Assembly (NCBI RefSeq): GCF_018977255.1
Contig: NW_024704772.1
Coordinates: forward strand, 682,001 to 746,000
Length of the DNA stretch: 64,000 nt
Direction: 5' to 3'
From: Callorhinchus milii
Lineage: Eukaryota
Shown piece by piece: positions 99-60,214 of this stretch. The notes under the pieces were generated by a model. It worked only from the letters and a program-made list of their open reading frames with translations, made no database searches and was not told where the DNA came from. Position 1 is the first letter of the stretch; every line of letters starts with the position of its first letter. The position numbers were made by a program, and so were the translations under genes.

Positions 99-1809
99 GT
101 TTATCATGGATCGCACGCAGAGAGGTGCCGAGGACTGCGAGGTGCTCGTCACCGTGTCCGACCTGGGGGGCCGGGCAGACGAGCTGAATAAACCCTGCTT
201 GAAGAGGCTGGGTGTCTGCCTGCGACAGATCGGGGATGAGCTGGACGGCAACGTGGAGTTGCAAAGGTAACCTCAGCCCAGTCTGCCTTGTTAAGTCACT
301 ATATCAAATGCAAGGATTGTCGTCGTTGTTATTACGATTGTTTTACACTAATCAGTCCTCAGTAGCCTGTAGCGGAGGAGGCTTCCTATCTGTACAGTGG
401 AATCCTGTAGGTTAGAGCTCTCGCCTCTCACGCGAGAGGACCTGGGTTCCCGGGCAGCAGGAATTCAAGATTCTGGGGGAGTTTAGAACTTATTACTGTT
501 TATAATCGGGGTTCTGTGGCTTCAGCCACTTGTGGATTGTCTCTTCTGTCCCAGACTCTAAGATCGACCCCTCCTGTTGTTCACTTTAAGGACCGCACTG
601 TAAACCCTGTCCCTCGACTCTCTTTGCCCACCACACACAGGATGATCAACAGGATTTCCACCAGCTGCCCCAAAGAGACCTTCTTCCAAGTGGCCAAGGA
701 GCTGTTTTCCGATGGAGTCATCAACTGGGGACGAGTGGTCACTCTCTTCTACTTTGCCTGCAAGTTCGTCGTCAAGGTGGGGCCCTGTTTCCTGTGGCTC
801 GGGGACAGTCAGTCAGAGAGCTGCCGCGTTTGCATCGTAACCCCTGCGATCTAGACTCCGTCTGGCGTGGAGGGCGCTATGTAAATGCAAGTTGTTGTTG
901 ATCTGCGAGCTGCCTTGTTACTCCCCTCTTCTCCCCCCCCCCACCGGTTGGTTTTGTACGTGTGACCAATGTCTGGCGTCTCCGTTTGACAGGCCGTGTG
1001 CCAGAAGCTCCCAGAGCTGATCCAGACCATAATCACGTGGACTCTGGAATACATCCAAGAGAATATCCTCCAGTGGATCCGGGAGCACGGTGGCTGGGTG
1101 AGTCTCGCTGTCGCTCTCACTGCGCGTTTCATTCCCGATGCTCGTGGTCTTCGTGGTTCAGTGTCGGCGCTCTCGCCTCTCCGCGTCGGACACTTTGACG
1201 TGCTCGGTGTGGGTGTCTGCAGGTTCCCGGGGCGGGACCACAAAACACACGGTCACTTTTGCAGTGTATCCGGTCAGGCGCTCTGAGACGTCACAAAGAC
1301 ACGATAAGGTGCCGTGTCAAATGCAAGGATTATTATTACGTCTTTTTCGGGGATTTTTTTTTCCTGAGCCTTATTTTCGCGTCTACAGCGGTGGGGCTTT
1401 GGAACAACAAGGAAATGTTTTTCGGTGGGAGAGAGGATAGAGAGAGACAGACGGAGGGTGAGGAGGAGAGAGTGGGCGGGAAGAGGTCAAGCCTCGTTGG
1501 GGGCCCTCTTAGTTCCCGGACCCCCCAAGCGATCGGATTTGCTGTTTGCAAAATGATCTGCCTCGTCTCTCCCCCCAACCCACACGTACGCACAAATAGT
1601 CGCTGCGCTTTGGAGAAGTCCCGAAAGGCCGTACGTCAAACACAAGGATTGTTGTTATTTGTGATGTCGAACAGGAGGATTCCGAACGTGTCTGTTCTTG
1701 TTTATCTGTTCCCCAGGATGCTATCCTCGGCACCCCGACCTGGCAGACTGTCAGCATCTTCATCCTGGGGGTCATCACTACCCTCGTGGTGGTGCGGTGG
1801 AAGTCTTAA
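99..1809 (+). CDS. bax: Apoptosis regulator BAX (5'-partial; coding exons 99-266, 641-776, 993-1097, 1717-1809)
   Basis: Four exons with AG/GT boundaries that splice in frame: FIMDRTQR...CLRQIGDELDGNVELQR (BH3), MINRISTSCPKETFFQVAKELFSDGVINWGRVVTLFYFACKFVVK (BH1 NWGR), AVCQKLPELIQ...QWIREHGGW (BH2), DAILGTPTWQTVSIFILGVITTLVVVRWKS* (TM anchor with the Bax-typical GTPTWQTV). The first exons lie before the window. Confidence 0.95.
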
Positions 1810-9172: not shown

Positions 9173-11530
<2,358 letters not shown>

Positions 11531-13282
11531 CCCAGGGGCCTATGGAGAGGTTGGAAATAATAATAATAATAACAACATAATAATAGAAATAATAATCCTG
11601 ACACAGCGCCTCATCGCGTCCTCGAGTCGTCTCAAAGCGCTTCGCAGAAGATGCTGTACACTGCAGTGACTGTGCATTTTGTGGGCGAAACGCGGTGGCC
11701 GATTGCGCCCCGCGACGTCCCCACAAACAGCCGTGGATTGAAGTGACCGCATTATTATTTATTTATTACATTTATTTTTGTTTAGACGGGATTATTACCA
11801 CCGGGGAAAGCGATCTGCCAATCGACCAACAACCGGGTGCCTACTGAGCGCCAGGTTCCTCCCGACGTGAAAGGCGCTCTATAAATGTCATTTTGTCGCC
11901 GTTGTTGTTGAGTAAACAGCGACGCGTGAGTTTGTGGAGTCAGGAAATTTGTCCGCGATGCGAAACAATACAAAATTACATTTGCGTAGCGCCTTTCACA
12001 CCAGGAGGAAGGTTTCTCCCTGCCCGGGAATCGAACCCAGGTCCTCTGGCTTGCTATATAAGTGCAAGTTGTTGTTGTTGTTGGGCCCCCACCCCCCCCC
12101 AGCTCCATGAACTCCCTGGATAGTCCCACTGACCTCCCGGTGGCTGACCTGTGTGCTCTCTCTGGCTGTCTCTGAGGCTTGCGAGTGCTCCAAATCGCTC
12201 TCTCTGTCCCACCAGTAAAATCGTTCCATTTCGTGTCCTTGTTCGCTTCCCCCTCTCTCTCCATCCCTCCCTCCCTCCCGCTCTCTTCGCTCTCTCTCTC
12301 TCTCTCTCTCTCACACACTCACACAATCCTTTCTCCCTTCTCTTCTCTTCTACCGTTCGCCTCAATTACTCCTTGCGGTACACCAGTCTCTGAGTAAAGA
12401 AGTTCCTTCTGACTTCCCTATTTGATTTTTTGGTGACCATTTGATACCTTTGGCCCCCGGGGTTGGGCTCCCCCACAAGTGGAAACATCCTCTCTGTGTC
12501 TACCCTACTTCGCTCTCTCTCTCTCTCTCTCGCTCTCTCACTCCCTCCCTCTCAACACGTCAATACAGCGTCCTTGTTTGCCTCAATCTCTCGCTCCCAC
12601 TCTTCTCTTACTCTCTCTCGCACACTCCTTTGTCTCTTTCCTCCCTCTCTTTCTCTCTCTCTCTCCTCTCTCTCACACACATACGTACTCTTTCGCACCT
12701 GCTCGCTCTCTCTCACACTCCTTTCCCTCTCTGTCTCCCCCCCTCTCACTTTCTCTCTCTCTATCTCCGAGTGTCAGAGGGTCGAAGGCTGTCCTACCTC
12801 TGTGGTCTGGGCTCCCTGGCTGATCCGTGCTGAGCTGTGATAGCCAGCAGTACTGTCTCGCTGTTAAGTCACTGGGAACCACCCTCCTCCGCGCCCTGAT
12901 TGGAAACACAGCCGTGCAATGGTGTCATTCCATTGCACAATGTGGTTGCCATTTTTATCAGCTGAGTCCAGGCAGGTGGGTGGGGGGGGGGAGAGGAGAG
13001 TCACCCAGACTCTCGTCACACGCACAAACACAGTATTCCTGGAAAAGGACAAAACATTAATCTCAGCCGTACAGAGAAACTACATAGAGCAAAGAAGCTT
13101 CCGAAACCAGCGATGGCTGTCAACCCGATCCCCGTCACCTCGGTTATATATCAAACCCACACTTCACGTTGGCTGGCGGGGAGGGTGGGCGGGTGGGCGG
13201 GATGAACCCTTTCACTGGGTTTCACTGTCCAGAGCAGATTAATCCTTTGATCCAGAAACAACAACATAACATACCATAACAT

Positions 13283-13797: not shown

Positions 13798-13860
13798 GCA
13801 TTACTTCATTGCCGGGGAGGGACGAGATGGAGTGTCCATTGTGGGGGAACGTGTATTCCA
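13798..13860 (+). pseudogene. Degenerate partial copy of the first zinc-finger exon
   Basis: About 63 bp with roughly 6 differences from 14469-14531. The acceptor AG has become GG (ttgccggg vs ttgccagg), CPLC has become CPLW, and the copy ends at an (AAC)n LINE tail. Confidence 0.8.
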
Positions 13861-14290
13861 ACAACAACAACGACATTACATGTGTAAAGGCCTTTCACAT
13901 CAGGAGGACGTCCCAAGGCGCTGGACAGACAGAGCTGGGGGTCAGGGTGGAGGGCAGAGGGCAGGGGGGGAAGCAGGGAGATCGAAAGCATGGTCGAAGA
14001 GGAGCTTCTTGAGAGGGGTCTTGAAGGTGGCGAGGGAGGGGGCGAGGCGGAGGGACTGCGGGATGGAGTTCCAGAGGGCGGGGGCAGAGTGGGCAGAAGG
14101 CCCCGCCCGCCGATAGTGGGGCGAGCGAGGAGGTGGGGGGGGGGGTAGTGAAGCAGGCCGGTGCCCGCTGAGCGGAGGGAGCAAACGGGGTGGTAGGGGG
14201 TTAGGAGGTCCCAGAGGTGGGGTGGGGTGGGGTGGTGGGGGGCTGGGGGCGGGGGGAGCAAGATCGTGGAGGGGCTTTGACGGTGAGGAT
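13858..14290 (-). mobile_element. L2-clade LINE 3' fragment
   Basis: Minus-strand translation HSAPALWNSIPQSLRLAPSLATFKTPLKKLLFDHAF resembles the C-terminus of L2 ORF2. It is followed by a 3' tail gggacgtcctcctgatgtgaaaggc...(GTT)n. Related fragments occur near 22350-22520 and 60440-60660. Confidence 0.7.
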
Positions 14291-14497
14291 CAGGATCTTG
14301 AACTGTCTCCTCCTGTTGTGCCATTGTGGCCAAGATTAACCCTTTCACTCACCGCTTCCAGGTTTAGTTAGTAAAATTAGGAGAGATTAACCGTTTCGTT
14401 CAGATTCTTCCTCATATTTGACAGACGGACGGACAGGGCTGGGAGTCCTGAAGACGTGATCGGTCGTGGCATTGCTTCATTGCCAGGGAGGGACGGG

Positions 14498-17312
14498 ATG
14501 GAGTGTCCGTTGTGCGGGAACGTGTATCCCAAGAGCAAGATAGAGTGTCACGCCTGGCACTGTTACAGCAGAACCACCCCGGGGGAAGAGGACCAGCCCA
14601 GCGAGGGAGCGGGCGAGGGAGGGAGCCGGGAACAGGACGGGCAGCGGGCAGCCAAAGGAGGTGAGAGCCACGGTGAGAAAACGTTCTCCAGGATCGGGTT
14701 AAGTGCTGTCGACGACTGGGAGAGGAGAGTGTGCGCCCCATTCCAGACCGGGGAGAAATTGCCAACTTTCACGCTCCCTCTCTTATCTATCTCCAGCCCC
14801 CCCCACACACTCTGTCTTTGTGTGTGTGTCTCTCTCTCCCTCTCTCCCTCCCTCAGCCTCCCCCCTCGCGTTAATAATAATAATATAATAATAATAATCC
14901 TCGCATTTGATGTAGCGCTTTTCACGTCTTCTCGACGTCTCAAAGCGCTTCACAGGATAGACCGTAAAGTGAATTGACCGTATGTTTGTGCTATCTCCGC
15001 TGTGTGTTGTACAGAGACGCTCAGGGCCGGGGGGATGGAGCAGGATTGCCCCCTGTGCGGCCTGCGATTCCCGGCTGCCGACATCGAGGAACACGCGGCT
15101 TTCTGTAACGGCCCCAGCTACAGCCGGAGCCCAGAGGAGGAGGAGGTGGCTGGGCGCGCCGAGGCTCAGCGGACCGGGCACCTCTTTTGGAGGTAAACGA
15201 GGTTCACCTTCACCCATCTGGTTCACGCACGCACTCGCCTCGCAAGCGAGAGGACCTGGGGTTCGATTCCCGGGCGGGGACCGAACCTTCTGCCCAATGT
15301 CGGAGACGCCACCACCCAGATATCACTTAGTATTGTGTTAGGTTGTTTCCTCATTACACACTCACAAACACGCACACTCTCACACACACGCATACACAAT
15401 CACACACACACATGCGCACACACGGGTACACACTCACTCGCACACACGAGTACACACACACACACACGCGCGCACACACACACAGATGCGCACATACAGA
15501 CACACACGCACACACACACACGCTTGTGTTTACCAGCAGTAAGTAGGAACCCTGTTGTTAGTTGATTGGCGTATTGCTTTTTCAGGGGTAATGATCCCCT
15601 CGCAAAGCTAACTAAGTAACGTGGTCACCCAATCCCACGGCTGTTTGTGGGGACATCGCTGGGCGCCATTGGCTGCCGTGTTTCGCCCGCAGAACACGCA
15701 CAGTCACTACACTTTACGGTACGTGCTGTGAAGCTCCTTGGAAAGTCTCAATGACGCGATAAGGCGCTGTGTTAAATCTAAAGGTTATTGTTGTTGTTCT
15801 GATTGTTATTATTAACGTTCTTCCGGCTCCTCTTCCCCTCAGCTACGTGAACAGAGATCGGAGGTTGGGACGCAGAGGGGCAGAGTGTGCGAGGCGGGAG
15901 CCCGGGGGCTCGGTGTCGGTGTGGGGCCCGGTTGGAGCCTCGGGGGGCTGTGAGCAGGATATCTCGCAGGAGCTGGCGGTTTTCCAAAAGTTCGGACAGG
16001 ATCTCGAGCAGAATCCTGAGTTCATCAAGTGAGTTTCTCTCCACAAACACACACTCGCGCGAGTTTCCTTACTCCACACACACACACACACACACACTCG
16101 CGCGCACACACACACACACATACTCGCGCGCACACACCCACACCTCTGTTTACTGAGCAGTCAGTAGGAATCCGGTTGTTAGTCGATCGTTTGGCGTATT
16201 CGCTTTTCCGGGGATAATAATCCCTTCAAATAAGTCAATAAGGTGGTCACTCAAAACCCACCGCTGTGCGCGGGGAACGCCGCTGTGCGCAATTAATCAA
16301 TCGGCTGCCGCCTTCCACCCACGGAACGCACAGTCGCTCCACTCGACAGTGCGTCCTGCGAAGCGCTTTGAGACGTCTCGAGGGCGCGATTAAAGGCGCT
16401 GGGTCGGAGGCGAGGGTTGTTGTCGTTGTCATCAGCCTGCGCTGTCTCCGCACAGAGCTGTCAAGTCTCTGCTGAGCAAATCCAAGAGCCCTCTGGAAAT
16501 GCTGAAGAACGTGTCGATGGCACTTTTCTCAGCAGGTGTTGGTGGAGGTGGCACCGTCTTCATGTTCTTCCAATTGGCTAAGATGTTCTTACCGATGGTG
16601 AGCAACGAAACTGACCAGCGGCTGAGTGTCTGTGTGTGCGTGAGTGTGTCTGTCTGTGTGTGCGTGTATGTACGCTAAGCTGTTTGTGGGACACTGCTGG
16701 CTGCCGCCTTTCGCCCACAAAATACACAGTCACCACATTAAACCTTACAGCGTGTCCTGCGAAGCACTTCTACACGTCTCAACGACGTGATCGGGCGCCG
16801 GGTCAAACCCCGGGATTCCTATCGTTATTGTTCATAGGATTTTTGTGCCGTGACAGATTCTGGAAAGCGAATCCTTCGTGACCTTTCAGAAGTGGGCAGG
16901 AAGCTTTATCCTGACGACTGTGGTCCCTTGGATCGAAAGGATAGGGGGCTGGGTGAGTATTTGGTGGAGGTGGGGGTGGGGGGTGCAACTGTGTGTATGG
17001 GTGCAGTGTGTGGTGTGTTCCAGGTTCTGCGATGGGGTCTCGTACACGGGGTGACCGAACAGTCCTGATACCGTCACAATGTCATTAAAGAAAGGATGAT
17101 TTTCTTTAGATAACACGAAAGGTGCTGCGTAAATGTCATTTGCTGTGGTCTCCCACTTGAGTCGCTCACTCACTCTGCTCTCTCTCTCTCTTCCTCTCTC
17201 CCTCTCTCTCCTCCGCACATAGCCGGTTGTTCTGGCCATGATGGGAGCGGTGTTGGCTGTCGGCCTGTTTGCCGGCTTCATAAAACTTCTGCAGGGTCAT
17301 TCCTCCCAGTGA
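14498..17312 (+). CDS. Divergent Bax/Bcl-2-family protein with two N-terminal UBZ4-like zinc fingers, ~284 aa (exons 14487/14498-14660, 15015-15192, 15843-16028, 16456-16597, 16857-16952, 17223-17312)
   Basis: All six exons have canonical splice sites and join in frame (855 nt from ATG 14498 to TGA). Zinc fingers are [20 protein letters not shown] and [33 protein letters not shown] aligns to Bax helix 1. BH3-like [13 protein letters not shown]1-like [22 protein letters not shown]2 [10 protein letters not shown] tail [23 protein letters not shown]. Intron phases in the Bax-like part (2,2,0,0) match the neighbouring bax. An additional upstream coding exon is possible. Confidence 0.85.
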
Positions 17313-21545: not shown

Positions 21546-24500
21546 CTAGGTGACCAGATGGGTCCAGTCGCTGGGACGTCTCCCGTACTGAAAAAGAAGA
21601 AAAAGGAATGATGTGCACTCCGTGTCTGTGCTGTGCCAGTGTGGTGGTCAACAACAACAACAACAATAATAATGATAATCCTGGCATTTGCTACAGCGCT
21701 CTATCGCGTCTTCGAGACGTCTCAAAGCGCTTCACGGGATATACTATAGACAGAATATATAATATTCAATGCCCAGTTCCATTATCCACAAAATACGGTT
21801 GATCCAGAGCTCACCCGCACTAAACTCCGTGTCCCAGTCCTCGTCAGGTTCCCTGTCACACACACTGAACCCCATAGCCCCCCATCACCCCAGTCCAATG
21901 CTGTTATCGTTGTAGTCTGTCTCCCTCCAAATCCCCCCACCCCCGTTCCCAGACTCACCTGAATGTCTGTCAGTTCTTTAAGGAAGCGTTTTGCCAAATC
22001 CGGACCATTCTCCATGGTGGGAATATGATAGTTCTGAAAAAACAATACATAAAGATAACCAACATTCCCAGAACTTATTCCCGTCGCCGGGAACTCGAGG
22101 GGAAATGTATTACATTTTCCCAAACGGTACAGGGGTCCACCATTAGGATTGTCTTAAAATTAACAAGATTTGCCCACAGTCCTCAGCAAAATAGCATTAA
22201 TAATCCTCGCATTTGATATAAAACCTTATTACGTCATTGAGATGTCTCAAAGCGCTCACAGGATATACTGTAAAGTGGAGCGACTATTTTGTTGTGGGCG
22301 GCAGTCAATTGCGCACAGCAGTGCCCCCCCACAAACAGTCGTGAACAGATCCCAAGGTGCTGGATGGTCAAGCTCCTGAGCTGGGGCTGGGATCAGGAAG
22401 GATGGAGGGCAGGGAGGGGATAGGAGGGTGACCGAAGGCTCGGTCGGAGGAGGATCTTGAGACGTGCATTAAGGGAGGGGGCGAGGGGGACTGGGAGGGA
22501 GGTCCAGAGGGGGTCTGGAGGTACCTGGTCGCAGTAGAGGATCTTGTTGATGGGACACACGACACAGGCTGTTCCTGCTCCGAACACCTCTTTAACTCGC
22601 TTCTCCTGAAGCCCTTTGATCAGGTCGGGAAGTGTTAGCTTCCGCTCCACCACTTTAAACTCCCCCTGAAATCAACGCAGGACAGTGTGGGGACTGCAGA
22701 CATAAATAAACACAAAATAATTTCCCGGGCGAAAGACCAGGGTCCATCCAGTTTGCCTTTCACCATCCTGGCCATCGCTTGACATGTCGTGTCCCAAACC
22801 AGACACTATCTGTGGGTAGTGTATGTGTGTGTGACAGAGACACACAGAGAGAGAGTGTCTGTGTGTGTGTGACTATATACTGTATCCCCCAGAGGTTATT
22901 TTCTGACAGAAAGCCATCTCGTGTTCTTGAAACAAACACTTTCTGCTCCCACCGTCTGTCTATCCGTCTGTCTGTCTGTCTGTCTCCCTCCCTCCCACCC
23001 TCCCTCCATAGGGGGAGACATACGTTTGCTATTCTCACTGAAGTAGTGTTTGTTCCGAATTTATCCCCCCCCCCCCACCCCCGCCGTCAATCGCAGGCCG
23101 TGTGTGTCCTCTGGTACAGACAAGAGAACGGTTCCGAACAAAACCCACGTTCAGTCAGAAAGCCTTAGAAAAAAAAGGAGATTTTCTTCGATCTCGGGTC
23201 CAAACTTGGGGGGGAAAGAATAATCATTATCATAATCTTTGCGTTCGATATAGCGCCTCGTCGTCTCGGAGCGGGTCACAGGATTTACTGTCAAGTGTCG
23301 CGTAATGATAATCGTCAGCCAGGACCCTGAAGAGGCGGACGGGAACTTGGGCTGCTGCGACTGGAGTCAAGTGTCTCCTCCCAATTCGTGTGGGTCGTAA
23401 ACAACGGCACAGAGGGGCCGGGCTGAACGGCTGTGCACGTGCGGAGAGCGGTGTCGAGTGCCAACGTACCCATTTCTTTCCCAGGTCCAGTAAACTCTGT
23501 CTGGTAACACCAGGGAGGATCGTGCCATTCAGCGGTGGTGTGAGCAACTCCAACACTAAGAAAAAAAAACACACACACACCAGAGAGAAACTCACTCGTC
23601 AACAGAAAGGCTGATGTGTCGATCACACGGGACACCGTTTGTTTATTCTCAACGTTCCTTCGTTAATAGGAAATGATGATAATAATAATAATAATAATAA
23701 TCCTCGCATTTGATACGACGCCTGATCATCTCGTCGAGAAGCCTCAAAGCGCTTCGCAGGATGCTCTGTGAAGTGGAGTGACTGTGTTTTTGTGGGCGCG
23801 GCAGTGGATGGAGTGTTTTTTTTAAGGGGTTAGTTGAGGATGGTTTAATTCCACGTTTAATTCCCCTCCACCATACGCGGGCCCCGACCCCTGACTGTCC
23901 AGTGCCTTGGGACGTCCTCCCGACGTGAAAGGCGCTCTGTATAAAAGGCATTTTGTTGTTGTTGTTGGGGGTGGGGGTGGGGTCTCTTGGAAGCTAATCT
24001 CCCGGCCGCGCTGCCACCCACCTCCCTGCTCGTTGTTCCAGTAGACGAAGATGTTCATGGTTCCCACCTCGGTGATCTCGTGATCTTCCCCATACAGCCA
24101 CAGCACCTGTTGGCAGCCGCGCTTCAGTGCCTCGCTCTGCACGTAAATGGTGGGGCCGTAATTTCTACGGTGGGGGGTGGGGGAGAGAATAATTAATTCA
24201 GGGAGGGCGCAAAAGTTAGCGACAACAGGAACAGATTACATTTGTATAGTGCCTGCGCGGGTGAGTGGGTGCCAGGCGGCAGGGAGGGAGGCAGGGTGGT
24301 AGGTTTCTTTCATTCATACTCCCTTTTCTTTCATTCGTACTTTTTTTTTGTGGGGGGGGGGGTGGGGAAACGTGGCTGAGACGTCTCAAAGCGCTTTGCA
24401 GGCTACACTGCAAAGTGTAGTGACTGTGTTTTGTGGGCGAAACGTGGCATCCAACTGTGGATTGAGTGGCTGTTATTAGTAGTTATTATCATTATCATCA

Positions 24501-27500
24501 GTGTGTTTGAAGGGATTGTTGATCCGAAGTCCTGGTAAGGAAGAACGGCTCAAAAATGACAACTAACCACCTCTCGCCCCTGTTCTTTGCCTACGTACCC
24601 TCCCAACTTGCAGTCGCCGACTCCTCCTTTCCACGCCCGCACGTACATGGGGTCAGCGATCAGGGAGATGGGGTTGAAGCTCCCTGTGGAGAAGTAAGGC
24701 CCCACCGGCCCTAGAATAACAAAGAGCAATGCGTGGTTCGACTGCGAGACTCCTAGAGACGGCTGAGGAGGGAGAGAGAGAGAGAAAAACCTCAGGTAAA
24801 CGTGATGTTACAATCCCTGACTGTCCAGCGCCTTATAATAATGATAATAATCCTCGCATTTGCTACCGCTCCTGATCACGTCCACCAGACGTCTCAAAGC
24901 GCTTCACAGGACACACTGTAAAGTGTAGTGACTGTGCGTTTTGTGGTTGAAACCCAACAACTAACAACCGGGTTCCCGCTGACTGTTAGTAAACAAGAGG
25001 CGTGTGGGTATGTGTGTGTGTGGGGGTGGGTGGGGGTGGGTGTGTGTGTGTGTGTGGGTGGGTATGTGTGTGTGTGTGTGTGGGTGTGTGTGTGTGGGGG
25101 GGGGTGGGTGTGAAGTAAGGAAACTTGCCATGTCCTCTCGCTTGCGAGGCGAGTGCTCTAACCACTGCACTACAAGCCTCCACACCGAGCTACCGGACGC
25201 CACACTGATGTTCAGGGAGGGTCGGCAAACAAGGAGAAGACCCAGAGGGTAAAAAAGCTTTGTGTTCCTACCTCAGTGCCGATGAACGTGGGTCGGATGT
25301 AGAGACTGGCTGAGGTGGAGTAAGGCACCCACTCTCTGTCCACCTCAATCAGCTTCCGAATGCAATCCAGCAGCTCGAGCTTGTCAAAGGCCTGGGGGGG
25401 GGGGGGAGCACAAACATGAGAAATAGGAGCAGGGCGGAGGCCATTCAGCCCCTCGAGCCTGTGCCCCCGCCATTTGATAAAGATCGCGGCTGATCTTCTC
25501 GCCAATTCCATGGACCCACCCTGGTCCCCGTATCCCTTTAAAGCCCTTTAGTTTTTAAACAATCCGTCCATCTCGGCTCTTGAACCCGTTCGGAGACTGA
25601 CTGAGCGTCTGCAGCCTCTGCAGCAGAGAATTCCAGAGCCCTCGACAGTGGCGGAGGGAGCACAACACCGAACTGAGTTGGGGGTGTGGGGGGGGGGAGT
25701 GGGGAGGTGACTGTAGGCACGACCTGATGATGGGGGAGGAGGGGGGGGGCAACGGCGGAGGGACTGACTGAGGGAGAGAGCGGCGGAGTTTGCTTGTTGA
25801 CCGGGCAGGGGGTAGGAGAGGCTGGGGGGTACCGGCAGGCAGGCTCGCAGGGTCGAGCGGAGCATCCTCTCCATGTTCAGGTCCGGCCGGAACATCCGGA
25901 TCTTGTTGTCCACTCCCCGGAAAGCCTTCATCCCCTCAAACAGCTGGGGGCCAGAGAAAGAGAGAGAGACACGTCCTGTTACTGCAGAACACTCAATTTA
26001 CCTGAATTCGCTGCTGGGATATTTCAAAATAACGACAACAACAACAACAACAGTAATCCTGGCAGTTGGGGACCCGGGGCTTTACCACGTCCCCCAGACG
26101 CCTCAAACACTGGGCCGAGGGGGCAGTGGAGGTAACGACAGCAAAATGTCGTGGACAGTGGCGCTCTTCGCGTCGGGAGGACGGCCCAAAGCGCTGGGCA
26201 CTGGGAGAGGAAGATCGTCGGGCTGGACCTGAAGATAGGGAAGAAAAGGGAAGGGGAGGGAGGGAGGGATTCATTGATTACAACTACTGTGTTACCTCCA
26301 CGGAATAGTGCAGAGCGGATGACGCGGGGTGCAAGGAGAGGTTCTGAAAGGGTTTGATGTGAGGTCTCTGCCAGCCTTTCTCGCTGTTCCACCCGACCGT
26401 CAGCATGTGGTCCGTGAAGGACTTGCCGAACACCAGGCTGTCGTTGTCCGGCTTCACCTTCGGCTGCTTGTTGATCTCGATCTGCAAATCCGCGGCCTGT
26501 CAGGGGCCCCAACCAAACAACGCAACGTAAGTCTACATTTGACGACGGCCACCTTTCCGCATACAGAGGAAGCCCTACCAACCACCCCCCCCCCCCCCCA
26601 ACAACCAAAAGAAAACCGTGGAAGTAATGACCCCGGCGTTTGACCCCCAGCGCCTGATCACGGCGTCGAGACGCCTCAAAGCGCTTCACGGGATGCGCTG
26701 TAAAGTGTAGGGGCTGTGTATTTTGTGGGCGAAACGTGGCAGCCAACTGCGCACAGCAGCGACCCCCCCACACACAGTCGTGGATTTGAGCGACCAGCTG
26801 TACACCACCACGTGCGTACGACTTGTACCCATTTCCTCCCCTTGTACGGACCTTAAACATGGAGCTGCCATTACGCCAGGAGCCATTGCAAAACCTGTGA
26901 GTTGGACACAGTTGTCTGGACAAAGCCTGCAAGCAAACACACAAATAAATAATATTATTAATAATAGCAAAGTCAATTGACCTGTGCAGTTTGTGGGCGA
27001 AACGCGGCAGCCAGTTGCGCGCAGCGACGTCCCACAAACGGTCGTGGGTTGAGTGACCGAATTGTCAGTCATTTTTTAACTAATTTTTGAAGAGATTTTT
27101 TAGCCTCAGAAAAGCAATCCGCCGATCGACCCACTACTTACTTACGAGGTAAACAGCGGCGCGAGTGTGCGCGAGCGTGCGTGGAGTGAGGAAACGTGCC
27201 TGAGCCTGGCCGGGAATCGAACCCAGGTCCTCCCGCTATCACGAGCTCTCTCTCTCTCTCTCTCTCTCTCGCTGCGGGAGTCGGCTAAGACCGTTCCCTC
27301 CCATGCTGTCCAAGTCTCGACAGAAAGCCTCGTTAGGATGATTAAAGAAAACAAACCCATCGGAGCAGAACACGGGGAGTGACAAACCAGCCAGTGCTTT
27401 ATTAACCAGACTTTGACTTGCCTCGTACTTGGCAAATACCTCGCTATCATTGGTCAAGAGGGGACCAGGGAGAGAGAGAGAGAAAAAAAGGCGTTTGCAT

Positions 27501-38072: not shown

Positions 38073-41000
38073 ATGACATCTTTGTTGCACCATGAAAACA
38101 GAGCCGGCGGGAGCTATAACAGCGCAAACAAGAAAGCCAGGTGAGTCACGGGCAGGACAGCAACGACAACTTGCATTTATGTGGCTTCGCCTTCACCTGG
38201 GCTGGAGTCCCGGAGAAATATTTTTTTAGAGACGTTGCCTCCATTTTGTTTCCGCTGTGGTAGCTCTCTCTCTCTCTCTCTCTCTCTCGTCTCGGAGTCA
38301 GAAGGTTGTGGGGGGGATGGGGGGGGGTGTCCTACGGATGAGACGTTTAAACCTCACTCACTCCCCTCCCCGTCCGCCTCTTTAGGGGGACGTTAAACAT
38401 CTCCCGCTGAGCTGTTCGAAAAGAGAATGGAGTTTCTCTCTCTCTCTCTCTCTCCCAATTTGTACCTATGTTCACTTATCTTCTTACAGGAAGAAATTTG
38501 GTGCCACAGCCCCCCCCTATATAGACTATCTGAAACAGATCTTACGTCGCTACCCAGATGGTAGTCAAATCCTGAAGGTAAATACATCAACAATAATAAT
38601 AAAGTGCCTTATATTGGACCCGGCGCCTGATCACGTCATCCGAGGCGTCTCAAAGCCTTTCACGGGATACGCTGTAAAGTGAATTGACTGCGTATTTTTT
38701 GTGGGCGAAACCCGGCAGCCGATTGCGCACAGCAGCGTCCCCACAAACAGCCGTGGATCGAGTGACCACATTTTTTGGGGGAGGGATTATTCCGCCAATC
38801 GACTAACAACTGGGTTCCTACTCACTGCTGGTAAACAGAGGCGTGTGTGTCTGTGTCTGTGTGCGTGTGTGTCTGTGTGAGTGTGTGTCTGTGTGTGTGG
38901 AGTCAGGAAACTTGCCCAATGTTTCGCCCTGTCCGGGAATTGAACCCAGGTCCTCTCGCTTGCGAGGCAAGTGCTCTAACCACTGAGCTACAGGACTCCA
39001 CTTATCTGTGGGTGGGTTTGGAGGGATTCCCTTTTATAAAGAAATGTTTGTTACCTGCTGTTGCCCTAAACACTGCAGATCTGCTGTGGACTGGAGCAGC
39101 AGTGAAGGGATTGAGTAGTTTGGGCATCCAGTCAGTGTTAGCGTTCTGCTTAACATCTCTCCTCTCCCCCCAGGAGTTGATTCAAAATGCAGATGATGCT
39201 GAGGCCAAAGAAGTGGTGTTCCTGTTCGACGAAAGGTCTTACGGGACATCGAGCCTATTCCTGAAGGACCTGAAATCATTCCAAGGTAAGTCATTAGGTT
39301 AAATGCTGGAGTCCTGTAGCTCAGTGGTTAGAGTACTCGCCTCGCGAGCGAGAGGGCCTGGGTTTGATTCCCGGGCGGTCAGGGCAAAACATTGGGCAAG
39401 TTTCCTTACTCCACACACACGCACACACCTCTGTTTACCAGAAGTAAGTATGAACCCGGTTGTTAGTTGATTGCGGGGGTAATAATCTCTCCCCCAAAAT
39501 AAATAATGATAATAATTTGGTCACTCAATCCACGGCTGTTTGTGCGGACGCTGCTGTGCGCAATTGGCTGTCGCGTTCTGCCTAAAAAATGCACAGTCGC
39601 TACACTACAGGGGCTCCACAATGTCTCTCCTGTCTGTGTTTGTGTGTCAGGGCCCGCTCTGCTGGTGTACAACGATTCGGTGTTCTCGGAGGAAGATTGG
39701 CAAGGAATCCAAAACACCGGCACCAGCACCAAACGAAACGACCCCAACAAAGTGGGTCAGTTTGGCCTGGGGTTCAATACCATCTATCATGTCACAGGTA
39801 AAGGCTCCATTCCACCTTCACCTTGGGAACCCTTCCCAGAAAATATCTTATTTTATTTTTAGTTTAAAGGGAGAAGCTAACTGTGTGTAAAGGGTGGCGA
39901 GATTTTAGGAATTTAATCATAATAATAATTAATAATAATAATAATCCTCGCATTTGGCCTCATCACGTCGTCGAGACATCTCAAAGCGCTTTGCAGGATA
40001 CACTGTAAAGCGAAGTGACTCCTTCCGACTGCAACAAATGCAAGGATTAGGATTAAATAAACTCATGGCTGATCTGTACCTCAACCCCAATGACTTGTCG
40101 TTGCCCCGTACCCCTCGATCCCCTGAACTAACAAACATCTATCCTCCTCCGTCTTGAAAATGTGAATTAAATCGAGTTAAGGCAAAAGAATCTTGAGATG
40201 TTTGTCGAACGCTTTCGAACGCTTGCTTTTTATGTAGATTTGCCGACCATCTTCAGTGGGAAATATGTTGGCTTCCTGGACCCGCAAGAGATGCTGTTTG
40301 GCGAGGAGGAGGGAGGGTATATATGGTCACTCGATGACGCTGAGGACAGAAAAACCCTGGAACACTCCAAAGATCAGATGAGGCCATTCAAATATGCCAT
40401 GGAGACAACCGGCACCATCTCCTGGTCCAACGCACTGAAGGAGCACTACTTTAAGGGGACGCTGTTCAGATTCCCGTTGCGGAGCGAACCCTCGGACATC
40501 TCGGAAAACCTCTACGATAAGGACAAGATCTTCGATCTGTTCGACTCGTTCCAGGCCGACGCGGAGACCACCCTCCTCTTCCTCAGGAACGTCACATCCA
40601 TCTCCGTGAAGCATGTTGACATGGATGGCAACGTCAAGGCGCTTCTCAGGGTCATAGCCTCCCAGCCGGAGTACATCCCGTGCTTCAACCACAACCTGAA
40701 CGTGGAAAACCAGGAATTCTTTTCCAGCGTGAAAACCTCGACCTGCGTGAGAGCCATTTCCCAGCAAGCCTCCGAGGACGAGAGCCAGAACCATTGGCTG
40801 ATCACTAGCTGCACGGCCAACGCGGGGGAATGGGCAAGTCTGGACGAGCTGGCCGAGAAGTTGAGTTACATCCCGTACGTCGGCCTGGCATTCCCGCTGA
40901 GCCAAGCCGAAACGCTGGAAGCCGGCGGGAAGCTGGAGTTCGAGGGGCGCCTTTGCTGCTTCCTGCCTCTCCCGGACAACGAGAGCAACAAGACGAGATT

Positions 41001-44000
41001 GCCTGTCCACGTCAACGCCTTCTTCGGCCTCTCGGACAACCGGAGGCACATCAAGTGGGTGGAGACCGACCAGAGGTATGACGAGGTGGCCAAGTGGAAC
41101 GAACTCCTGATGCAGAAAATCCTGCCTTTTGCCTACTGTCGGATTATCCTGGACGGGATCACTCTGGCACAGACATCGGCCCTGAGACCCGCCTCGGTTT
41201 ACTATCTGTGGCCAGATTACGAGAGGATGAACCACAAGGAACGTTGGATCCACATCATCTCCAAGACCATCAAGCGATTGCTGGAGTTCAACGTCCTGTT
41301 CCTGGCAGCCAGCGAGGAGAAGTGGATCAGGGCCGACAAGGCCATCTTCTTACACTGCAACGACCAACCTGAGATGCAGCAGGCAATTGAGGCCGTGTTG
41401 ATCGAGGAAGCACATCCTCTGGTGAGGGTGCCAAGCCACGTGTTCAAGGCGATAGAGCTGGCCTGCGCGAACGATGGCTTAAACATGGTGTCTCCCGCGT
41501 CCCTGAGGAACATCCTCCAACACTGCGACTTGGACACCATCCCCTACGATCAGAAGCTGTTGTTTCTGGAGTTCGCTCTCCGCGATGGACAATACCGGGA
41601 GCTCAACAACCTCCAGCTCCTGCCGCTCAGCAATGGGTCCTTTGTCAAGTTTCAGATCAGCACATCTGATGAGCCGGTGTTCACCGAGTCAGAAGCCTTT
41701 CCCCGGTAAGATTGTAATCCGAGTACAGTGACATGTGTTGACTCCATATTGACCTGACCTCTCCCTCTCTGCTCAGCAGGCTCCAGTCTGCTCCCTGTTC
41801 CCCCCATCGCACCCCTTTCTTTTTTTAATGTGATCATTTGTAAAGAAACTATCAAAACAGATCAGTAACCTCTTTTGGGGGTTTTATTATACACAGAATT
41901 TTACTTCCCAACCTTGAAAGATTTTTGCCCGAAGATCTGAATGCAACAACCCTGGACCATCTACACAAGGTTGCCAACAACCGTGAGTAACTTGTCTCCA
42001 TCCCTTGGCTAGGATTAAATTAGCTTTGATTAGACTGGGGGGGTTGGGGGGGGGTGGGGGTGGGGAGAGGGGTTGGGGGACTTTAAACCTCACTCCCCGT
42101 CTGCCTGTTCAGGTGGACGTTAAAGATCTCTCCTGTGGCGCTATTCGAAAGGAGAAGGGAGTTTCTCTCTCTCTCTCTCTGGCCGACAATCCCTCCGAAT
42201 GCAATCGGTCACTCACTTCTCGACTGTTTGAGGGGACGCTGCTCTGCTGTGCGCAATTGTGCTGCCGTGTTTCGTCCGGGAACGCACGGTCGTTCCCACT
42301 TTACAGCGTACCCTGTGATTCGCTTTGAGACGTCTCGAAGACGCGATAAGGCGTCGGGTCAAATGCGAGAGAGTATTGTTGAGTGTCGACTGCGTGTGGT
42401 GAAGAATTACTAGCGGAAAAGCTGCTTTGTTTTGGTGTTTCTTGCAGATATATTTGCAAACGTCACCTGCCTGGATGTGGAGCTCGTGAAGCAGTACGTT
42501 AGGAAAGTTCTCCCAGAGAACTGGACGCAGAACTCCGGGCGGGTGACGTGGGATCTTAAGGACTCTCACCAACCTCCGCTGAACTGGATGGTCGAATTCT
42601 GGGGCTTTCTCTATAAGAACTGCAGCAGTCTGGAAGACTTCGAAGGGTTGCCCCTCATCCCATTAAGTCCTCTCACGCAATCCCAAAGCAGCATCCAATT
42701 GGCAAGCTTGTCCAAAAAGGCCACCATGATTTTTGAAGGGCAGAACGGATGCCAATTGCCCGACGTGATCATTAAGATCATTACCGGAGTTGGAGGTTCC
42801 GTCATTCAGAGCAGCAGCAGTGACGATTATCTAAAGCATCAACAATTGACCGAGTACGTTTTGCTACCCAACCCCAGCGGGGTCTTAAAGGTGTTTTTGA
42901 ACCTCGGATGCGATCAAGTGGCAAAGGAGGTGGGCACGATGGCACTCGAAGACAGAAGGTCGTTGAGGGGTTTCCTGGCTGAAGCTTCTGGCTTTGACGT
43001 GGACGAGAAAAACGTCTTGTTTAAGTTGCCCATCTTCCAACCCATGCCCTCGCTGAAGTCGGCCAACAAAGGGCTGGTCGCTGCGGCTAGTCACGAAGCC
43101 GTGAGCAACGACATTTTCCCCGAGATCCCCGATGACGTCCTCTTGCCAGAGACCGTGCTGAGGTGCGTCGACGAGAAAGACCGGAAGCTTCTCCTGATGA
43201 GAGGCAAGTTACTGACTGCGGCGGATGTGGGGTTGCTCCTGTGTAAGGGGGTGGAAAGCCAGCGCTATGAGCCCGAGCAGACTGAGAGAGCCATGCTGTG
43301 GGTACTGAGATACAGTGAGGTCCTGTTCAAGCAGAAACCAGAGTTGCTTCACAGATGCAAAGCCTTGAAGTTCTTGACCTCCAAGGACAAAATGGTGCAA
43401 GCTTCCGCCTTGTTCGATCCGAACAACTCAGCCTTCCAGGACCTCTTCCAGCCGGAATTCCAGCACCTCTTCCCGTCTCCTGTTTTCTGCCAGGATGAGA
43501 AAGTACTGCAGACCCTCCAGAGACTCGGACTCAAGTGCAAGGAGGAGAATATTGGACCGGATGATGTCCTGAAGGTGGCCAAGTTGATAGACAGGCAGCA
43601 GAGCCAGCCCGGCGACCTCAGCGATACGTGTAGAAGAGCCGAGGCCCTGATCGCTATCTGCAACCAGACCAGTGTCCTGGCCAACTGTACCTCCCAGATT
43701 ATTGAGCAGTTATGTTCCTTGCAGTGGGTTCCGAGCTTTTCCAAACTCTCGCCAGAACCCGTTGAGGCGAATATAGACTTTCACAAACCTGAAAACTTAC
43801 GGGACTCAAAGTACAACAACATTGTCGGCTCTGGCATGTTACTGACCGACAGGTTTATAGAAAAGGCTAGTAAGATCTTGGGTCTGACCAGCCTCCCACC
43901 AGCTGAGAAGGTGGTGGAGAATCTTCTGCTCATCGTCCAACAGGTGGACACCGTCAATTATTCCAACTATAATTTCATGGGGGATTTGCACACAATCTAT

Positions 44001-47000
44001 GGGCACATGCAGAGGAACCTGAGCCAATTCAAGGGGCTGCTGATGGGTGTGGAGATGCCTTGGGTTTGGGACGGGGCTGGTTTCTCAAGGCCTCAGAGTA
44101 TTGTGTTCTCCTATCCCGAAGGGTTGGATCTCAGCTGCTACATGAAGAAAGTTCCTCAGGAGATCTCACAGTACAGAGAGTTGCTGACTGAGTGTGGGGT
44201 CAAAACAGGTTACCCCAGCGAGGAGATCATCCTAATCCTCCACCACGTAAAGAGCAGCCTCGACAAGCTGAACTCCGGCTACGGCAGCTCGAACGAACTG
44301 AAGGCGATCATTTCTATCCTCGATTGGATGCGCAGGAAAAACATCGCTCCCAGTGATGATCTTCCGGTCCCCGTGTGGAAAGGCAATCAAGGCGGGTTCT
44401 GCTTACAGCCGTTGTCCAACGCTGTCCTGTGCGACATGAACAAGGAGGCTCTGGACGACGTGAACAGGGATGGAGAAACTTTCTACGTTGTCCATGAGGA
44501 AATCAGCCTGGCCACCATCGAGTGGCTGAACGTTCCTGCTTTGAGTACCCGGGTGCTGAACCCGGAGTTGTTTGGGATCGAGCAGTACGGACAAGTGGAG
44601 CCCTTGATCCTGAGGATCAGGAACATCCTCAAAGAGTACGATCAGGAGCACGACCTCTTCAAGGAGCTGATACAGAATGCAGAAGACGCTGGGGCCACGG
44701 TCTGTAGTTTCCTGGTGGACATGAGACAAAGCAAGGACTCACCTGAAACCCTGATAGACCCTGGGATGGCCTCCTGTCATGGCCCAGCCCTGTGGTCCTA
44801 CAACAACGAATGTTTCACCGAAGCGGATTTTCAGAACATAACGCGAGTCGGGACGGGAGCCAAGGCCAAACAAGTGGAAAAAATTGGTAAATTTGGGCTG
44901 GGATTCAACTCTGTGTATCATATCACCGACGTCCCCTCTATCCTGAGCGGCAAATACCTGCTTATTTTTGATCCCAATGTTACTCACCTCAAGAAGCACA
45001 TCCTGTCTGCCACCAACCCCGGAATTAAACTCAATCTCTACGAACACAGGCGGTTAATTCAGAGGTTCCATGGGCAGTTCAACCCCTACAACGGGATATT
45101 TGGCTGTAATTTTAAGATCGCTGCCGGGGAAAATTTCTACTATGAGGGGACACTCATTAAGCTACCGTTCAGGACACCAGAGGAGGCCACAGTGTCTGAG
45201 ATCTGCAACAAGTATTACAACCAGAAGCACATCATGTCCTTGGTGGACAGCTTCAGACAAACCTCGAAAGACCTTATCGTCTTCTTGAAGAACGTGAAGA
45301 AGGTCTCGCTCAAGTTCATTAGCGAGCATTCAGTCCACGAAAACCAGGTCATCCCCGTCTTCAAAATGGAGAGGCAGGTTCTGTGTATCATCGAGGTCGC
45401 GGACACCTTCCCCATCAAGAAGATGCAGGAGAACGCCGTGAGCATACTGGAGAGCACCAACAAGTTCAACAGGAAGATTAAGAACTTCAGCACCTCGACC
45501 ATCATCCAGTTCACCGAGGAGACCATCGACAACCCAAGCCAAATGAAATACTGGCTGGTCCATTCGTGTTTCGGCATGTCCAAGGCCTTGCAAATCGCCT
45601 GCAGTAAAACCGTCAACACCTACTACGCCCTGCCTCTGGGTAGTGTCGCTGTCCCTCTCAGAAAGCGGAAGGAGACCGGACATTGGATGCCAGACACAGA
45701 ATCCCCCGTGGGACAAGTCTTCTGCTTCCTCCCGCTGTCTGTCCAGTGCGGTCTCCCTGTCCACGTCAATGGGACCTTTGCCGTCACCTCGAACAGGAAG
45801 AACCTGTGGAGCACCGGCTCGAAGGGAGATTGGAACCAGGCGCTTTTAGAGGACGCTGTTTCTGCGGCCTACATCACGTGCGTGGTCCTGATGCAACAGA
45901 TGGCACAGAAGGGGGAGATCGAAAACTACGACTATTACACCTACTGGCCCAACCTCAAGAAGGTGGACAATCAGTTCCGCGTGGTCCTGGAGAAGTTCTA
46001 CAAAACAGTAGCTCACGGCATAAGCGGGGTCTCGATCAAAGCCTTCAGCAACGGCAAGGAGTGGGGCACCATCAGCGAAAGCCGTTTCCTGGACTCAGTG
46101 GTCCTCACTAACAGGAGAGTGGGCGCGGCTGCGGTGAGAGAGTTTGCCAGGTATCTGCCCAAACCCCTCCTGGCCGTCCATCTCCCAGACTGGGTCAGGA
46201 AGGGCTTTGTGGCCAGCGGCTGTGACAGCGTCATTGACCAAAACACTTACACCTGGGAGTCGTTTTACAGGGAGATCGTGTTTCACAACTTGGGCGTCTT
46301 GAACCACAAGACCAGGAATGATTTTGTGGTCCACGCCATTGACATGAGGGATCTGGCCATCGACGAGATGCTGAGGACAACGGCTTGTGTTCCCATCAGC
46401 GGCCGATCGGAACTCCAGCGTATCGAGAACCTGGTGCACCCAGAGGGTAAAGTGGCCTGTCTTTACGACCAGGAGGATGGGAGGTTCCCTGTAGGAACAC
46501 TGCAGGATTTCCTGCATCCCGAAAGGCTGTTGAGGTTGGAAATGCTAGGAATGACCAAAGACAAGATCTCCTTTTTGGAGTTAATCCACAGAGCGTGGAC
46601 GGTCAAGGAGATATGGAGTCACGACAGGAACAAAGCTTATCAACGGACACGCAATATTTTGGATCTACTTAAAGACCAAGAACAGTACAACAGTGACAAC
46701 CAACAAAAGTTACAGAACATCCCATTGCTGCCCGCTATGCTCCCACACAGTCAAGTCAAAAAAGGCCCTGGAGATAATATCGTGTTGGTGAGAGCTGTGG
46801 ACTTGTACAGCTGTAAATACCAAGCTCTGGTCAATATGACAGAGATGATATTGGACCGCGATTTGTGCAAAGGCATGAAATTGTCCCCAGAAGCCATCTC
46901 CTTCCTGGGGCTGAACAAGCAACCTCCCGTGGAGACTGTGTTAGAGCAACTCAAACAAACCTACAAGTGTAATAATCTGGCCGTAAGCGACGTGAAGAGG

Positions 47001-53000: not shown

Positions 53001-53483
53001 AGTTACTCGGCCAACGACTTTCGTTTCTGGTCCTTCTCCAAAAGGCCGCGTTCCAACCCCGAGGAGGCTGAGCGTTGGTTCAGACAAGCCAAGTGCGACC
53101 TCATCGCAGCCTCCAACGACCTGGGCTGCACCGACCTGGGCTGTACGGCCACCGAATGGTTCTATTTCAAGGTCCACCAGGCGGTAGAGAAAGCCCTGAT
53201 TGCCGCGGAGTACATGAAATCGGGCAAGTCAGGCTGTGACCACAGCATTAAGTCCCTGGCCACCCAAGTGTCTGGGTTCAGCACTAAGCTGGCAGACCTG
53301 GAGAACCTGGTCAACAAGCTGAAGGAACGTGGTGTGGACAGTAAGAAGACCCAGTATCCGAGCTACCACACCCAGCCACACGTCCCAAACGATCAGTTCA
53401 AGGCGGGTAACGAAGAAGAGGTCCTTAACTTAGCGCAAATGGTGTTGGGTAAAATCGAGGAGTACATCTCCAATAAATCGTAG
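38073..53483 (+). CDS. Sacsin-like protein (SACS paralog), ~4334 aa (exons 38073-38140, 38490-38577, 39174-39285, 39651-39797, 40238-41705, 41897-41982, 42448-53483)
   Basis: Seven exons join in frame (13005 nt). Three sacsin repeat regions with HSP90-like ATPase motifs: [45 protein letters not shown] (~44664) and ELIQNADDA (~47685), each followed by GxFGLGFN-type and LPVHVN motifs. DnaJ J-domain [13 protein letters not shown] (HPD 52779-52787) and a C-terminal HEPN domain ([13 protein letters not shown]...[11 protein letters not shown]). ATTAAA at 53526. Confidence 0.93.
38592..38999 (-). mobile_element. Full-length tRNA-derived SINE, long subfamily
   Basis: tRNA-like head at the right end (accactgagctacaggactcc), internal (CA)n, cagcagtgagtaggaacccagttgttagtcgattggcgga core and Deu-like tail. 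Dozens of full or partial copies occur throughout the window, e.g. 6483, 9380-9665, 10285, 15230-15790, 37080-37330. Confidence 0.85.
39308..39612 (+). mobile_element. tRNA-derived SINE, 3'-truncated
   Basis: ggagtcctgtagctcagtggttagagtactcgcctcgcgagcgagagggcctgggtttgattccc head plus the family core. Confidence 0.8.
42448..53483 (+). CDS. Giant terminal coding exon (11,036 nt) of the sacsin-like gene
   Basis: Uninterrupted ORF (3683 aa in the ORF track) with acceptor cttgcag at 42441-42447. A giant last exon is characteristic of sacsin genes. Confidence 0.95.
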
Positions 53484-59948: not shown

Positions 59949-60214
59949 AGCGATGGGGCGGGTGGTGAAGGCGGTTTGACTGAGTTGGTAGGTTAAGAAT
60001 TGCTAACAGTCGGTGATTGTGATGCAGTCAGTGCGGAGGTGAATGCAGCAGCAGGGAGTGAGCACATGGCTCGCCTCCCTGTAAAACATGTCTACCTCGG
60101 TGAACCCTTTCCATTGACCCCATTGCCTTTCCCCCTCTTCTGTGTGCCGGTCGGGTGCTTGGGCTTGCGTGGTGTGTGTTCACTTATGTGCCTCACACTC
60201 CAGGAACCGCCTAC

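Follow-up and report, generated by a model that had tools for sequence, protein, structure and literature searches.

Loss of the Canonical BH3-BH1 Residue Pair in a Zinc-Finger Bax Paralog of Callorhinchus milii and Its Relatives

The zinc-finger Bax paralog and its descent

We analyzed a 64,000-nucleotide stretch of the Callorhinchus milii genome (RefSeq assembly GCF_018977255.1, contig NW_024704772.1, positions 682,001 to 746,000; hereafter the window), in which a zinc-finger paralog of bax and a canonical bax gene both lie on the plus strand. A sequence-only reading of the window had proposed that the paralog keeps neither the BH3 Asp nor the BH1 Arg, whose ionic pair has been named the canonical interaction (PMC7022251), and that it had thereby left the canonical Bcl-2 network. 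The paralog consists of six coding exons, with GT-AG borders at all introns, and the joined frame of 855 nucleotides is stop-free and encodes 284 amino acids identical to RefSeq XP_007909036.1 ("uncharacterized protein LOC103190156"), confirming that the reading frame is kept.

Exon 1 (14498..14660) contains zinc finger 1 (14504-14563, residues 3 to 22), with the spacing C-x2-C-x11-H-x3-C, and is followed by a phase-1 intron; its joint to exon 2 was found spliced in three runs. Exon 2 (15015..15192, phase 2) encodes zinc finger 2 (15047-15106, residues 66 to 85) and the first half of a BH4-like helix 1, and exon 3 (15843..16028, phase 2-2) supplies the end of helix 1, a loop, and helix 2 with the degenerate BH3 FQKFGQDLE (15982..16008), in which Phe161, Gly165, and Gln166 (15997-15999) correspond to Bax Leu63, Gly67, and Asp68. 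Helices 3 to 5 are encoded by exon 4 (16456..16597, phase 0), where Pro188 and Phe200 correspond to Bax Pro88 and Phe100 and where BH1 is remodeled (16526..16582), with an uncharged, Gly-rich loop. Exon 5 (16857..16952, phase 0) covers helices 6 to 8 and BH2, and exon 6 (17223..17312) encodes a tail anchor directly after BH2, with GxxxA and GxxxG, and then the stop codon. The protein is thus laid out as two CCHC fingers, a low-confidence linker, a Bcl-2 fold at about residues 100 to 258, and the anchor. The motifs that had been quoted from it were all found in place (FQKFGQDLE at 15982, GGGGTV at 16541, and WIERIGGW at 16929). The canonical bax, represented in the window by exons 3 to 6 (99..1809, plus strand: 99-266, 641-776, 993-1097, and 1717-1809), served as the reference paralog and keeps its BH3 (at 220) and NWGR (at 723), as had been described.

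Splicing was read from GT-AG joints in run contigs, the runs carrying no RNA label on record. One 1,187-nucleotide contig, from a run that is probably RNA, had all six exons spliced; further runs from two studies, with exons 3 to 6 covered, showed the exon 3-4 and exon 4-5 joints again. Contigs of eight runs from three studies carry no listed letter change in the BH3 (15982-16008) or BH1 (16526-16558) codons, which argues that the motif changes are not assembly errors; given also the open frame and the spliced contigs, the assembly-error reading was rejected. An exon-4 search found that exon to be single copy in the genome. Two in-frame deletion alleles were observed, one removing 12 bases of the first linker at 14600 and the other 3 bases of the anchor exon at 17249, together with a Lys-to-Thr allele at 16464 in exon 4. 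In addition, a decayed copy of about 65 bases of the start codon and first finger (13798-13862, matching 14468-14532) sits 670 bases upstream and runs into a repeat.

Several lines of evidence connect the paralog to Bax. Its local alignment score against the neighboring bax was 96, compared with a shuffled mean of 29.5 (standard deviation, 4.4; maximum, 45; 500 shuffles). Human BAX was the top solved-structure match of the single protein (E = 1.3e-5) and the first match of the family profile (E = 1.5e-8; BAK, 1e-3), and the profile scored Bax proteins at 23 to 40 bits and Bak, Bcl-2, and Mcl-1 at less than 8 bits. Intron phases 1, 2, 2, 0, and 0 are common to the paralog and both canonical bax genes of the locus, the phase of the first canonical intron being deduced from exon 2, since no in-frame join was obtained for the GC-rich first exon. 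The paralog follows the Bax exon plan, in which one intron splits helix 1 and others follow helix 2, separate helix 5 from helix 6, and come after the GGW of BH2; three of its introns interrupt the same codon as in bax, the helix-1 intron matches in codon and phase, and the one that separates helices 5 and 6 is displaced by a codon. In Bak, Bok, Bcl-2, Bcl-xL, and Mcl-1 of C. milii, BH1 to GGW lies in one exon without a helix 5-6 intron. A 19-row tree of 122 columns placed the family inside Bax (88/87) on a long stem branch of 1.59 changes per column, with trees joining it to Bak or Bcl-2 not rejected (P value of the approximately unbiased test [p-AU], 0.29). The exon plan therefore indicates that the zinc-finger paralog descends from Bax, although joins with Bak or Bcl-2 are still statistically allowed by the tree.

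Predicted structures support a Bcl-2 fold, a helical bundle of α1 to α8 around hydrophobic helix 5, and bear on the fold only. Two AlphaFold models had predicted TM scores of 0.42 and 0.43, with helices at a per-residue confidence (pLDDT) of about 75 to 90. Model 1, built from family rows only, was partly open and matched catfish BAX with a Z score of 7.8 and a root mean square deviation (rmsd) of 11.5 over 133 residues. Residues 100 to 271 of model 2, which was biased toward the Bax fold by Bax-type rows in its input alignment, matched BCL-2 (Z, 10.0; rmsd, 3.4; 134 residues), and this model matched BAX with α1 to α8 aligned (Z, 9.5; rmsd, 3.7; 139 residues); a comparison of the predicted model with BAX 15-172 (5w61) gave a Z of 9.6 and an rmsd of 3.5 over 131 residues. 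Foldseek returned no match at an E value of 0.001 for either model, with Bcl-2 family chains topping both lists, and in a wide structure search all Z scores for model 1 stayed below 8.

BH3 and BH1 across the family

Relatives were collected by a HMMER search of 1.84 billion representatives (29 matches at an E value of 0.001) and a profile search (17 matches from 7,991 scored candidates), which together yielded members from 20 species of cartilaginous fish and 4 of lamprey; the remaining matches had either fingers alone or an ordinary Bax-like sequence. Word-indexed searches queried with the paralog protein recovered nothing but that protein, and an ESM Atlas search with it gave no usable match. 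The relatives' records are named "uncharacterized," "hypothetical," or "unnamed" throughout. Against Pfam PF00452 the paralog scored 24 bits (E = 5.7e-5), under the curated cutoff of 31.4, and two relatives that were checked gave no PF00452 row at an E value of 0.1; the subfamily has been overlooked because it falls below this cutoff. The finger-plus-Bcl-2 architecture did not occur in bony vertebrates among the HMMER and profile matches, searches that are limited in reach, and loss of the family there is likely.

Two fingers occur in 19 of the 20 cartilaginous fish records, the 20th beginning inside finger 2, and four in each of three lampreys. Lampreys probably hold family members, judging from the shared architecture, Pro at position 110, the short hairpin, and the early anchor; their Bcl-2 domains do not outscore Bax on the cartilaginous-fish profile (25 to 30 bits), nor do their fingers outscore unrelated fingers. 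A 35-row tree was dropped as a guide to lamprey orthology, since long branches met and the lampreys fell inside the rays. An unannotated subfamily is thereby added, kept across chimaeras, sharks, rays, and likely lampreys; chimaeras split from sharks and rays about 400 million years ago.

Counts below are based on one isoform each from 19 cartilaginous fishes and 3 lampreys (22 full BH1 sequences), with a Chiloscyllium plagiosum row that diverges after BH3, Lampetra fluviatilis, and further isoforms excluded; BH3 was counted in 18 cartilaginous fishes, the Pristiophorus record having no BH3 exon. Among annotated isoforms, which may include annotation artifacts, Pristiophorus skips and Hypanus duplicates the phase 2-2 BH3 exon, and one from Heptranchias ends after it.

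The loss of both salt-bridge partners that had been read in C. milii proved to be family-wide. Arg109 is absent from all 22 sequences (19/19 cartilaginous fishes and 3/3 lampreys), its site in cartilaginous fishes holding Ala (11), Thr (5), or a single Gly, Val, or Ser, and evolving at a median rate (rank 53 of 105). An acidic residue replaces it in none of the 22. Pro follows this site in 17 of 19 cartilaginous fishes and all 3 lampreys (C. milii has Thr209); the Gly108 site holds Ala (9), Val (7), Gly (2), or Tyr (1), and Trp107 is also missing from all 22, so that no member has an NWGR motif. Asp68 is absent from 17 of 18 cartilaginous fishes and 3/3 lampreys. Its site (Arg 5, Gln 4, His 3, Lys 2, and one each of Asp, Asn, Leu, and Val) is among the fastest, ranking 101 of 102 in entropy and 103 of 105 in rate; the only Asp is in Hemiscyllium, joined by the excluded C. 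plagiosum row. With the Gly67 site occupied by Glu (11), Gln (3), Gly (3), or Ala (1), the BH3 Gly-Asp pair occurs together in none of the 18 cartilaginous fishes or 3 lampreys, and the Leu63 and Leu70 sites stay hydrophobic.

These comparisons changed the details of what had been reported for C. milii. With helix 5 registered on Lys218 (16580-16582), equivalent to Bax Lys119, NWGR falls on Gly205-Gly208 and the loop is one residue shorter, so that Gly208 (16550-16552) stands at Arg109 and Thr209 at Val110, and the replacement of NWGR by GGGT, with Thr in place of Arg, was misregistered; the loop has no charged residue to stand in for Arg. The Leu63-to-Phe change is present in C. milii but is shared by only 2 of 18 cartilaginous fishes, 15 keeping Leu and 1 having Ile, and orthologs do not conserve the exact substitutions, given this distribution and the rate of the Asp68 site. 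Free variation, which the sequence-only reading had named as an outcome that would refute it, applies to the Asp68 site and not to the slow helix 5 and BH2 or to the Arg109 site, which is held to small residues before Pro. Overall, the salt-bridge loss is old and family-wide: BH3 has been freed of constraint and BH1 rebuilt into a small-small-Pro start of helix 5 behind a loop of variable length, and the Phe-for-Leu, the Gly run, and the Thr-for-Pro of C. milii are details of its lineage.

BAX-like proteins of reptiles (Salvator, Emydura, and Eublepharis) gave the best profile scores of any nonmembers, 39.6 to 40.4 bits compared with 23 to 39 bits for canonical Bax. They resemble the family in having lost the BH3 Gly-Asp and in an NPE hinge, a PL..L start of helix 4, and a short hairpin, and differ from it in keeping NWGR and in having no zinc fingers or hydrophobic tail. 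In these lizard and turtle proteins, Trp-Gln/Glu replaces the BH3 Gly-Asp. The tree grouped them as sister to the family (88/89), with alternatives not rejected (p-AU, 0.29 to 0.30), and they may be its sister lineage; if so, BH3 would have been lost before BH1. An ESM Atlas search with one of the reptile proteins returned generic Bcl-2 clusters only.

Conserved core, zinc fingers, and tail anchor

Constraint was gauged by site rates. Relative to the mean, rates were 1.30 in BH3, 1.37 in the BH1 loop, 0.74 in helix 5, and 0.75 in helices 7 and 8 (BH2), and the identity of C. milii to elasmobranchs was 62% in helix 5, 66% in helices 7 and 8, and 19% in BH3. Invariant sites include Pro88, Leu92, Phe100, position 115, Trp139, and GGW, and 19 species agree fully in at least 14 of 102 columns. 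The Lys119 site holds Lys in 18 of 19 cartilaginous fishes (Arg in the other) and in 3/3 lampreys. BH2 is kept in C. milii, as had been stated, and its GGW, with an intron directly after, in 19/19 and 3/3, whereas Arg takes the place of the first Trp of BH2 in 4 of 19 relatives. Since helix 5 and BH2 are slow, a relaxed BH3 site rather than gene decay is indicated, and the pattern reads as the loss of one function within a working gene. The helix 5-6 hairpin is two residues shorter than in Bax, and helix 6 has a hydrophobicity of 0.29 to 1.05, compared with about 0 in the two local bax proteins; lamprey helices 5 and 6 are less hydrophobic.

Compared with BAX, the family keeps Pro88, Phe100, Phe114, Lys119, Trp139, and BH2 and shares five intron phases; it differs in lacking the BH3 Gly-Asp, NWGR, and the helix 8-9 linker that bears the GTPTW Pro, in its shorter hairpin, and in its two to four N-terminal zinc fingers. 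We therefore class it, from its sequence features, as a Bcl-2-fold protein of Bax descent that is not a canonical effector, both the BH3 LxxxGD and NWGR being absent. The hydrophobic tail begins 1 to 3 residues past BH2, compared with 8 to 11 in Bax, carries GxxxG in 16 of 18 cartilaginous fishes, and lacks the GTPTW hinge of bax. Such a tail would be unable to fold back into the groove, which suggests permanent membrane residence.

The fingers share the spacing C-x2-C-x11-H-x3-C with the UBZ4 fingers of RAD18 and WRNIP1 and with the first finger of RAP80, a subtype that is also common in unrelated eukaryote proteins. Finger 2 best matched RAP80 507-532 (E = 0.0022) and next RAD18, and the family profile matched RAD18 (E = 1.9e-6). 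Ubiquitin binding by such fingers needs an Asp two residues after the His; the family differs from UBZ4 in having Ala or Trp there, and the first RAP80 finger is likewise non-Asp (Met). Two lamprey species are the only ones with Asp at this position, in finger 2. A predicted complex of finger 2 (residues 58 to 92) with C. milii ubiquitin, made without an alignment, scored 0.02 against a mark of 0.34, a result that counts neither for nor against binding. Sharks, but not C. milii, have a 10-residue Ser/Arg/Glu-rich unit repeated in tandem, as a variable array, in the segment that joins finger 2 to helix 1.

Candidate functions and genomic context

With both partners lost family-wide in a conserved gene, exit from canonical BH3-in-groove binding is likely, and to that extent the proposal of the sequence-only reading stands; the importance of the particular substitutions in C. 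milii was not borne out, and the scaffold, decoy, and zinc-finger-gated private effector that it suggested are candidate roles. Canonical activation, dimerization, and inhibition are all very probably precluded, BH3 and BH1 both being gone. The reading that we favor, at a probability of roughly 0.42, is a permanently tail-anchored adaptor outside the BH3-in-groove network, with tandem fingers predicted to bind a partner. In such an adaptor, BH3 would be inert as a ligand, the groove would be closed or nonselective, the protein would sit constitutively in the membrane of an organelle, its GxxxG anchor may mediate dimerization, and the fingers would recruit the partner, ubiquitin being the first candidate ligand even though the usual ubiquitin-binding Asp is missing. 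This reading rests on the fingers and the anchor being the gained and conserved parts and on the canonical bax genes next door; two such genes in the locus and a third elsewhere suggest that effector duty is covered. The second canonical bax (contig C31:675454-677829, minus strand) lies head-to-head with the window bax and has BH3 Gly-Asp and NWGR intact, making the paralog locus a three-gene bax cluster; the third Bax-type gene is on contig C17.

Data on related proteins bear on this reading in both directions. BID and BFK (BCL2L15) likewise have a Bcl-2 fold without NWGR and, unlike the zinc-finger family, are not known to have a tail anchor. In them Lys or Arg replaces the NWGR Trp, as in eight sharks of the family, and BFK did not bind a BID BH3 peptide up to 40 µM, but theirs is a working BH3 freed by caspase cleavage (PMC8814693), whereas that of the family is degenerate. 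BAX G108V and R109D inhibit homodimers (PMC9004659), and BAX R109D does not respond to cBID when the dose is low (PMC7181796).

Several points weigh against the adaptor. The same groove mutants, G108V and R109D, still bind a BAK BH3 peptide (PMC9004659), and R109D releases cytochrome c at 200 nM via its BH3 (PMC7181796), so that BAX is not silenced when only Arg109 is lost. Lys or Arg at the Trp107 position in 8 of 19 relatives, all sharks, leaves room there for a substitute cation at the groove edge. The slowest segment, helix 5 with Lys119 kept, would equally fit a pore former; lamprey tails have no GxxxG; and both AlphaFold models have low overall confidence and give no groove geometry. Moreover, the post-His Asp of RAD18 gives way to Ala (finger 2) or Trp (finger 1) in 19/19 two-finger records, and the fingers share nothing but the central Ala with the FAAP20 D-A-L motif (PMC4267625), making ubiquitin binding doubtful.

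The strongest rival, because Lys119 is kept, is a BH3-independent effector, in which the fingers or their removal would free the helix 5-6 hairpin for tBID-like permeabilization that neither BH3-only nor pro-survival proteins could control; we regard it as possible but doubtful. Killing by tBID can proceed in the absence of its BH3 and depends on helix 6 (homologous to BAX helix 5) and Lys157/Lys158 (PMC8762556), and the equivalence of BID Lys146 with the NWGR Trp (PMC8814693) would, by this one anchor, put Lys158 on Bax Lys119, the Lys that the family retains. Helix 5 is also the slowest region, and helix 6 is more hydrophobic than in the local bax proteins. Helix 5 is, however, a buried fold core whose conservation is expected in any folded version, BAX pores are BH3 dependent even for R109D (PMC7181796), by-eye inspection made no shared caspase site evident in the helix 1-2 loop, and the lower hydrophobicity of lamprey helices 5 and 6 also counts against a pore. 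The broader proposal of an ancient vertebrate Bcl-2-fold effector that permeabilizes a membrane under ubiquitin-type-finger control, retained by lampreys and cartilaginous fishes but lost in bony vertebrates, and with its pore uncoupled from the BH3 network, is in our estimate unlikely; if pore forming is true, the family would offer a clean test of BH3-independent permeabilization.

A decoy or brake on Bax/Bak, binding via the tail anchor or a salt-bridge-free hydrophobic groove and capping growing oligomers, is rather unlikely. Its position in the bax cluster, the GxxxA/GxxxG anchor conserved in cartilaginous fishes, the hydrophobic Leu63 and Leu70 sites, and peptide binding by the BAX groove mutants (PMC9004659) would all suit it, but it leaves the conserved fingers unexplained and faces a bulkier groove floor. 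Position 112, which lines the BAX groove as the A112C lock indicates (PMC9004659), is Phe instead of Ala in 11 of 19, with Val or Tyr at Gly108 in most others (Val108 in most rays); since the canonical bax proteins of C. milii have Thr or Met at position 112, the bulk argument from this position is only modest.

Improbable in our judgment is a conditional canonical member with a narrow BH3 ligand set and a rewired charge pair. The Asp68 site is basic in many sharks (Arg 5, Lys 2, and His 3 of 18), with Lys or Arg near the old BH1, and Asp persists in the two species named above, yet both of these carry Glu at Gly67, the residues at the Asp68 site are too varied for a coevolved pair, no acidic residue stands at Arg109 in any of the 22, and the C. 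milii loop is uncharged. Neutral decay of a redundant bax duplicate into an incipient pseudogene, which would account for the long stem branch, the freely varying BH3 and BH1 loop, and the sub-cutoff Pfam score, was rejected as highly improbable in view of open frames in chimaera, sharks, and rays, spliced transcripts, alleles that are in-frame or single-letter, the invariant columns, and conservation confined to particular regions.

Bcl-2 biology rests on BH3-in-groove binding; BID and BFK dropped the groove motif and kept BH3, and the zinc-finger family has lost both. Such a family would constitute a natural experiment on which parts of the Bax fold are needed for folding, membrane action, and anchor dimers without BH3-groove contact. 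A literature search, with coverage short of subscription journals and supplements, found no description of the family and no pairing of tandem CCHC fingers with a Bcl-2 fold in print, and the keyword passages of two evolutionary reviews (PMC8998228 and PMC7022251) do not mention it.

Elsewhere in the window lie a cytidine deaminase-like exon (11372-11539, minus strand), a class IV aminotransferase gene (bcat2-like; 21900-27000, minus strand), a sacsin-domain gene with a 3,689-codon open frame (40171-53483, plus strand), and a GARIN/FAM71-like gene (60104-62508, plus strand). Other Bcl-2 family loci of the genome, which may include assembly duplicates, comprise two bak-like genes (contigs C19 and C5; names tentative), one with NWGQ for NWGR, a pair of Bcl-xL-like exons on contig C18 that are nearly identical and separated by 20 kb (name tentative), and repeated GGW-ending exons at about 40.5 Mb of contig C5.

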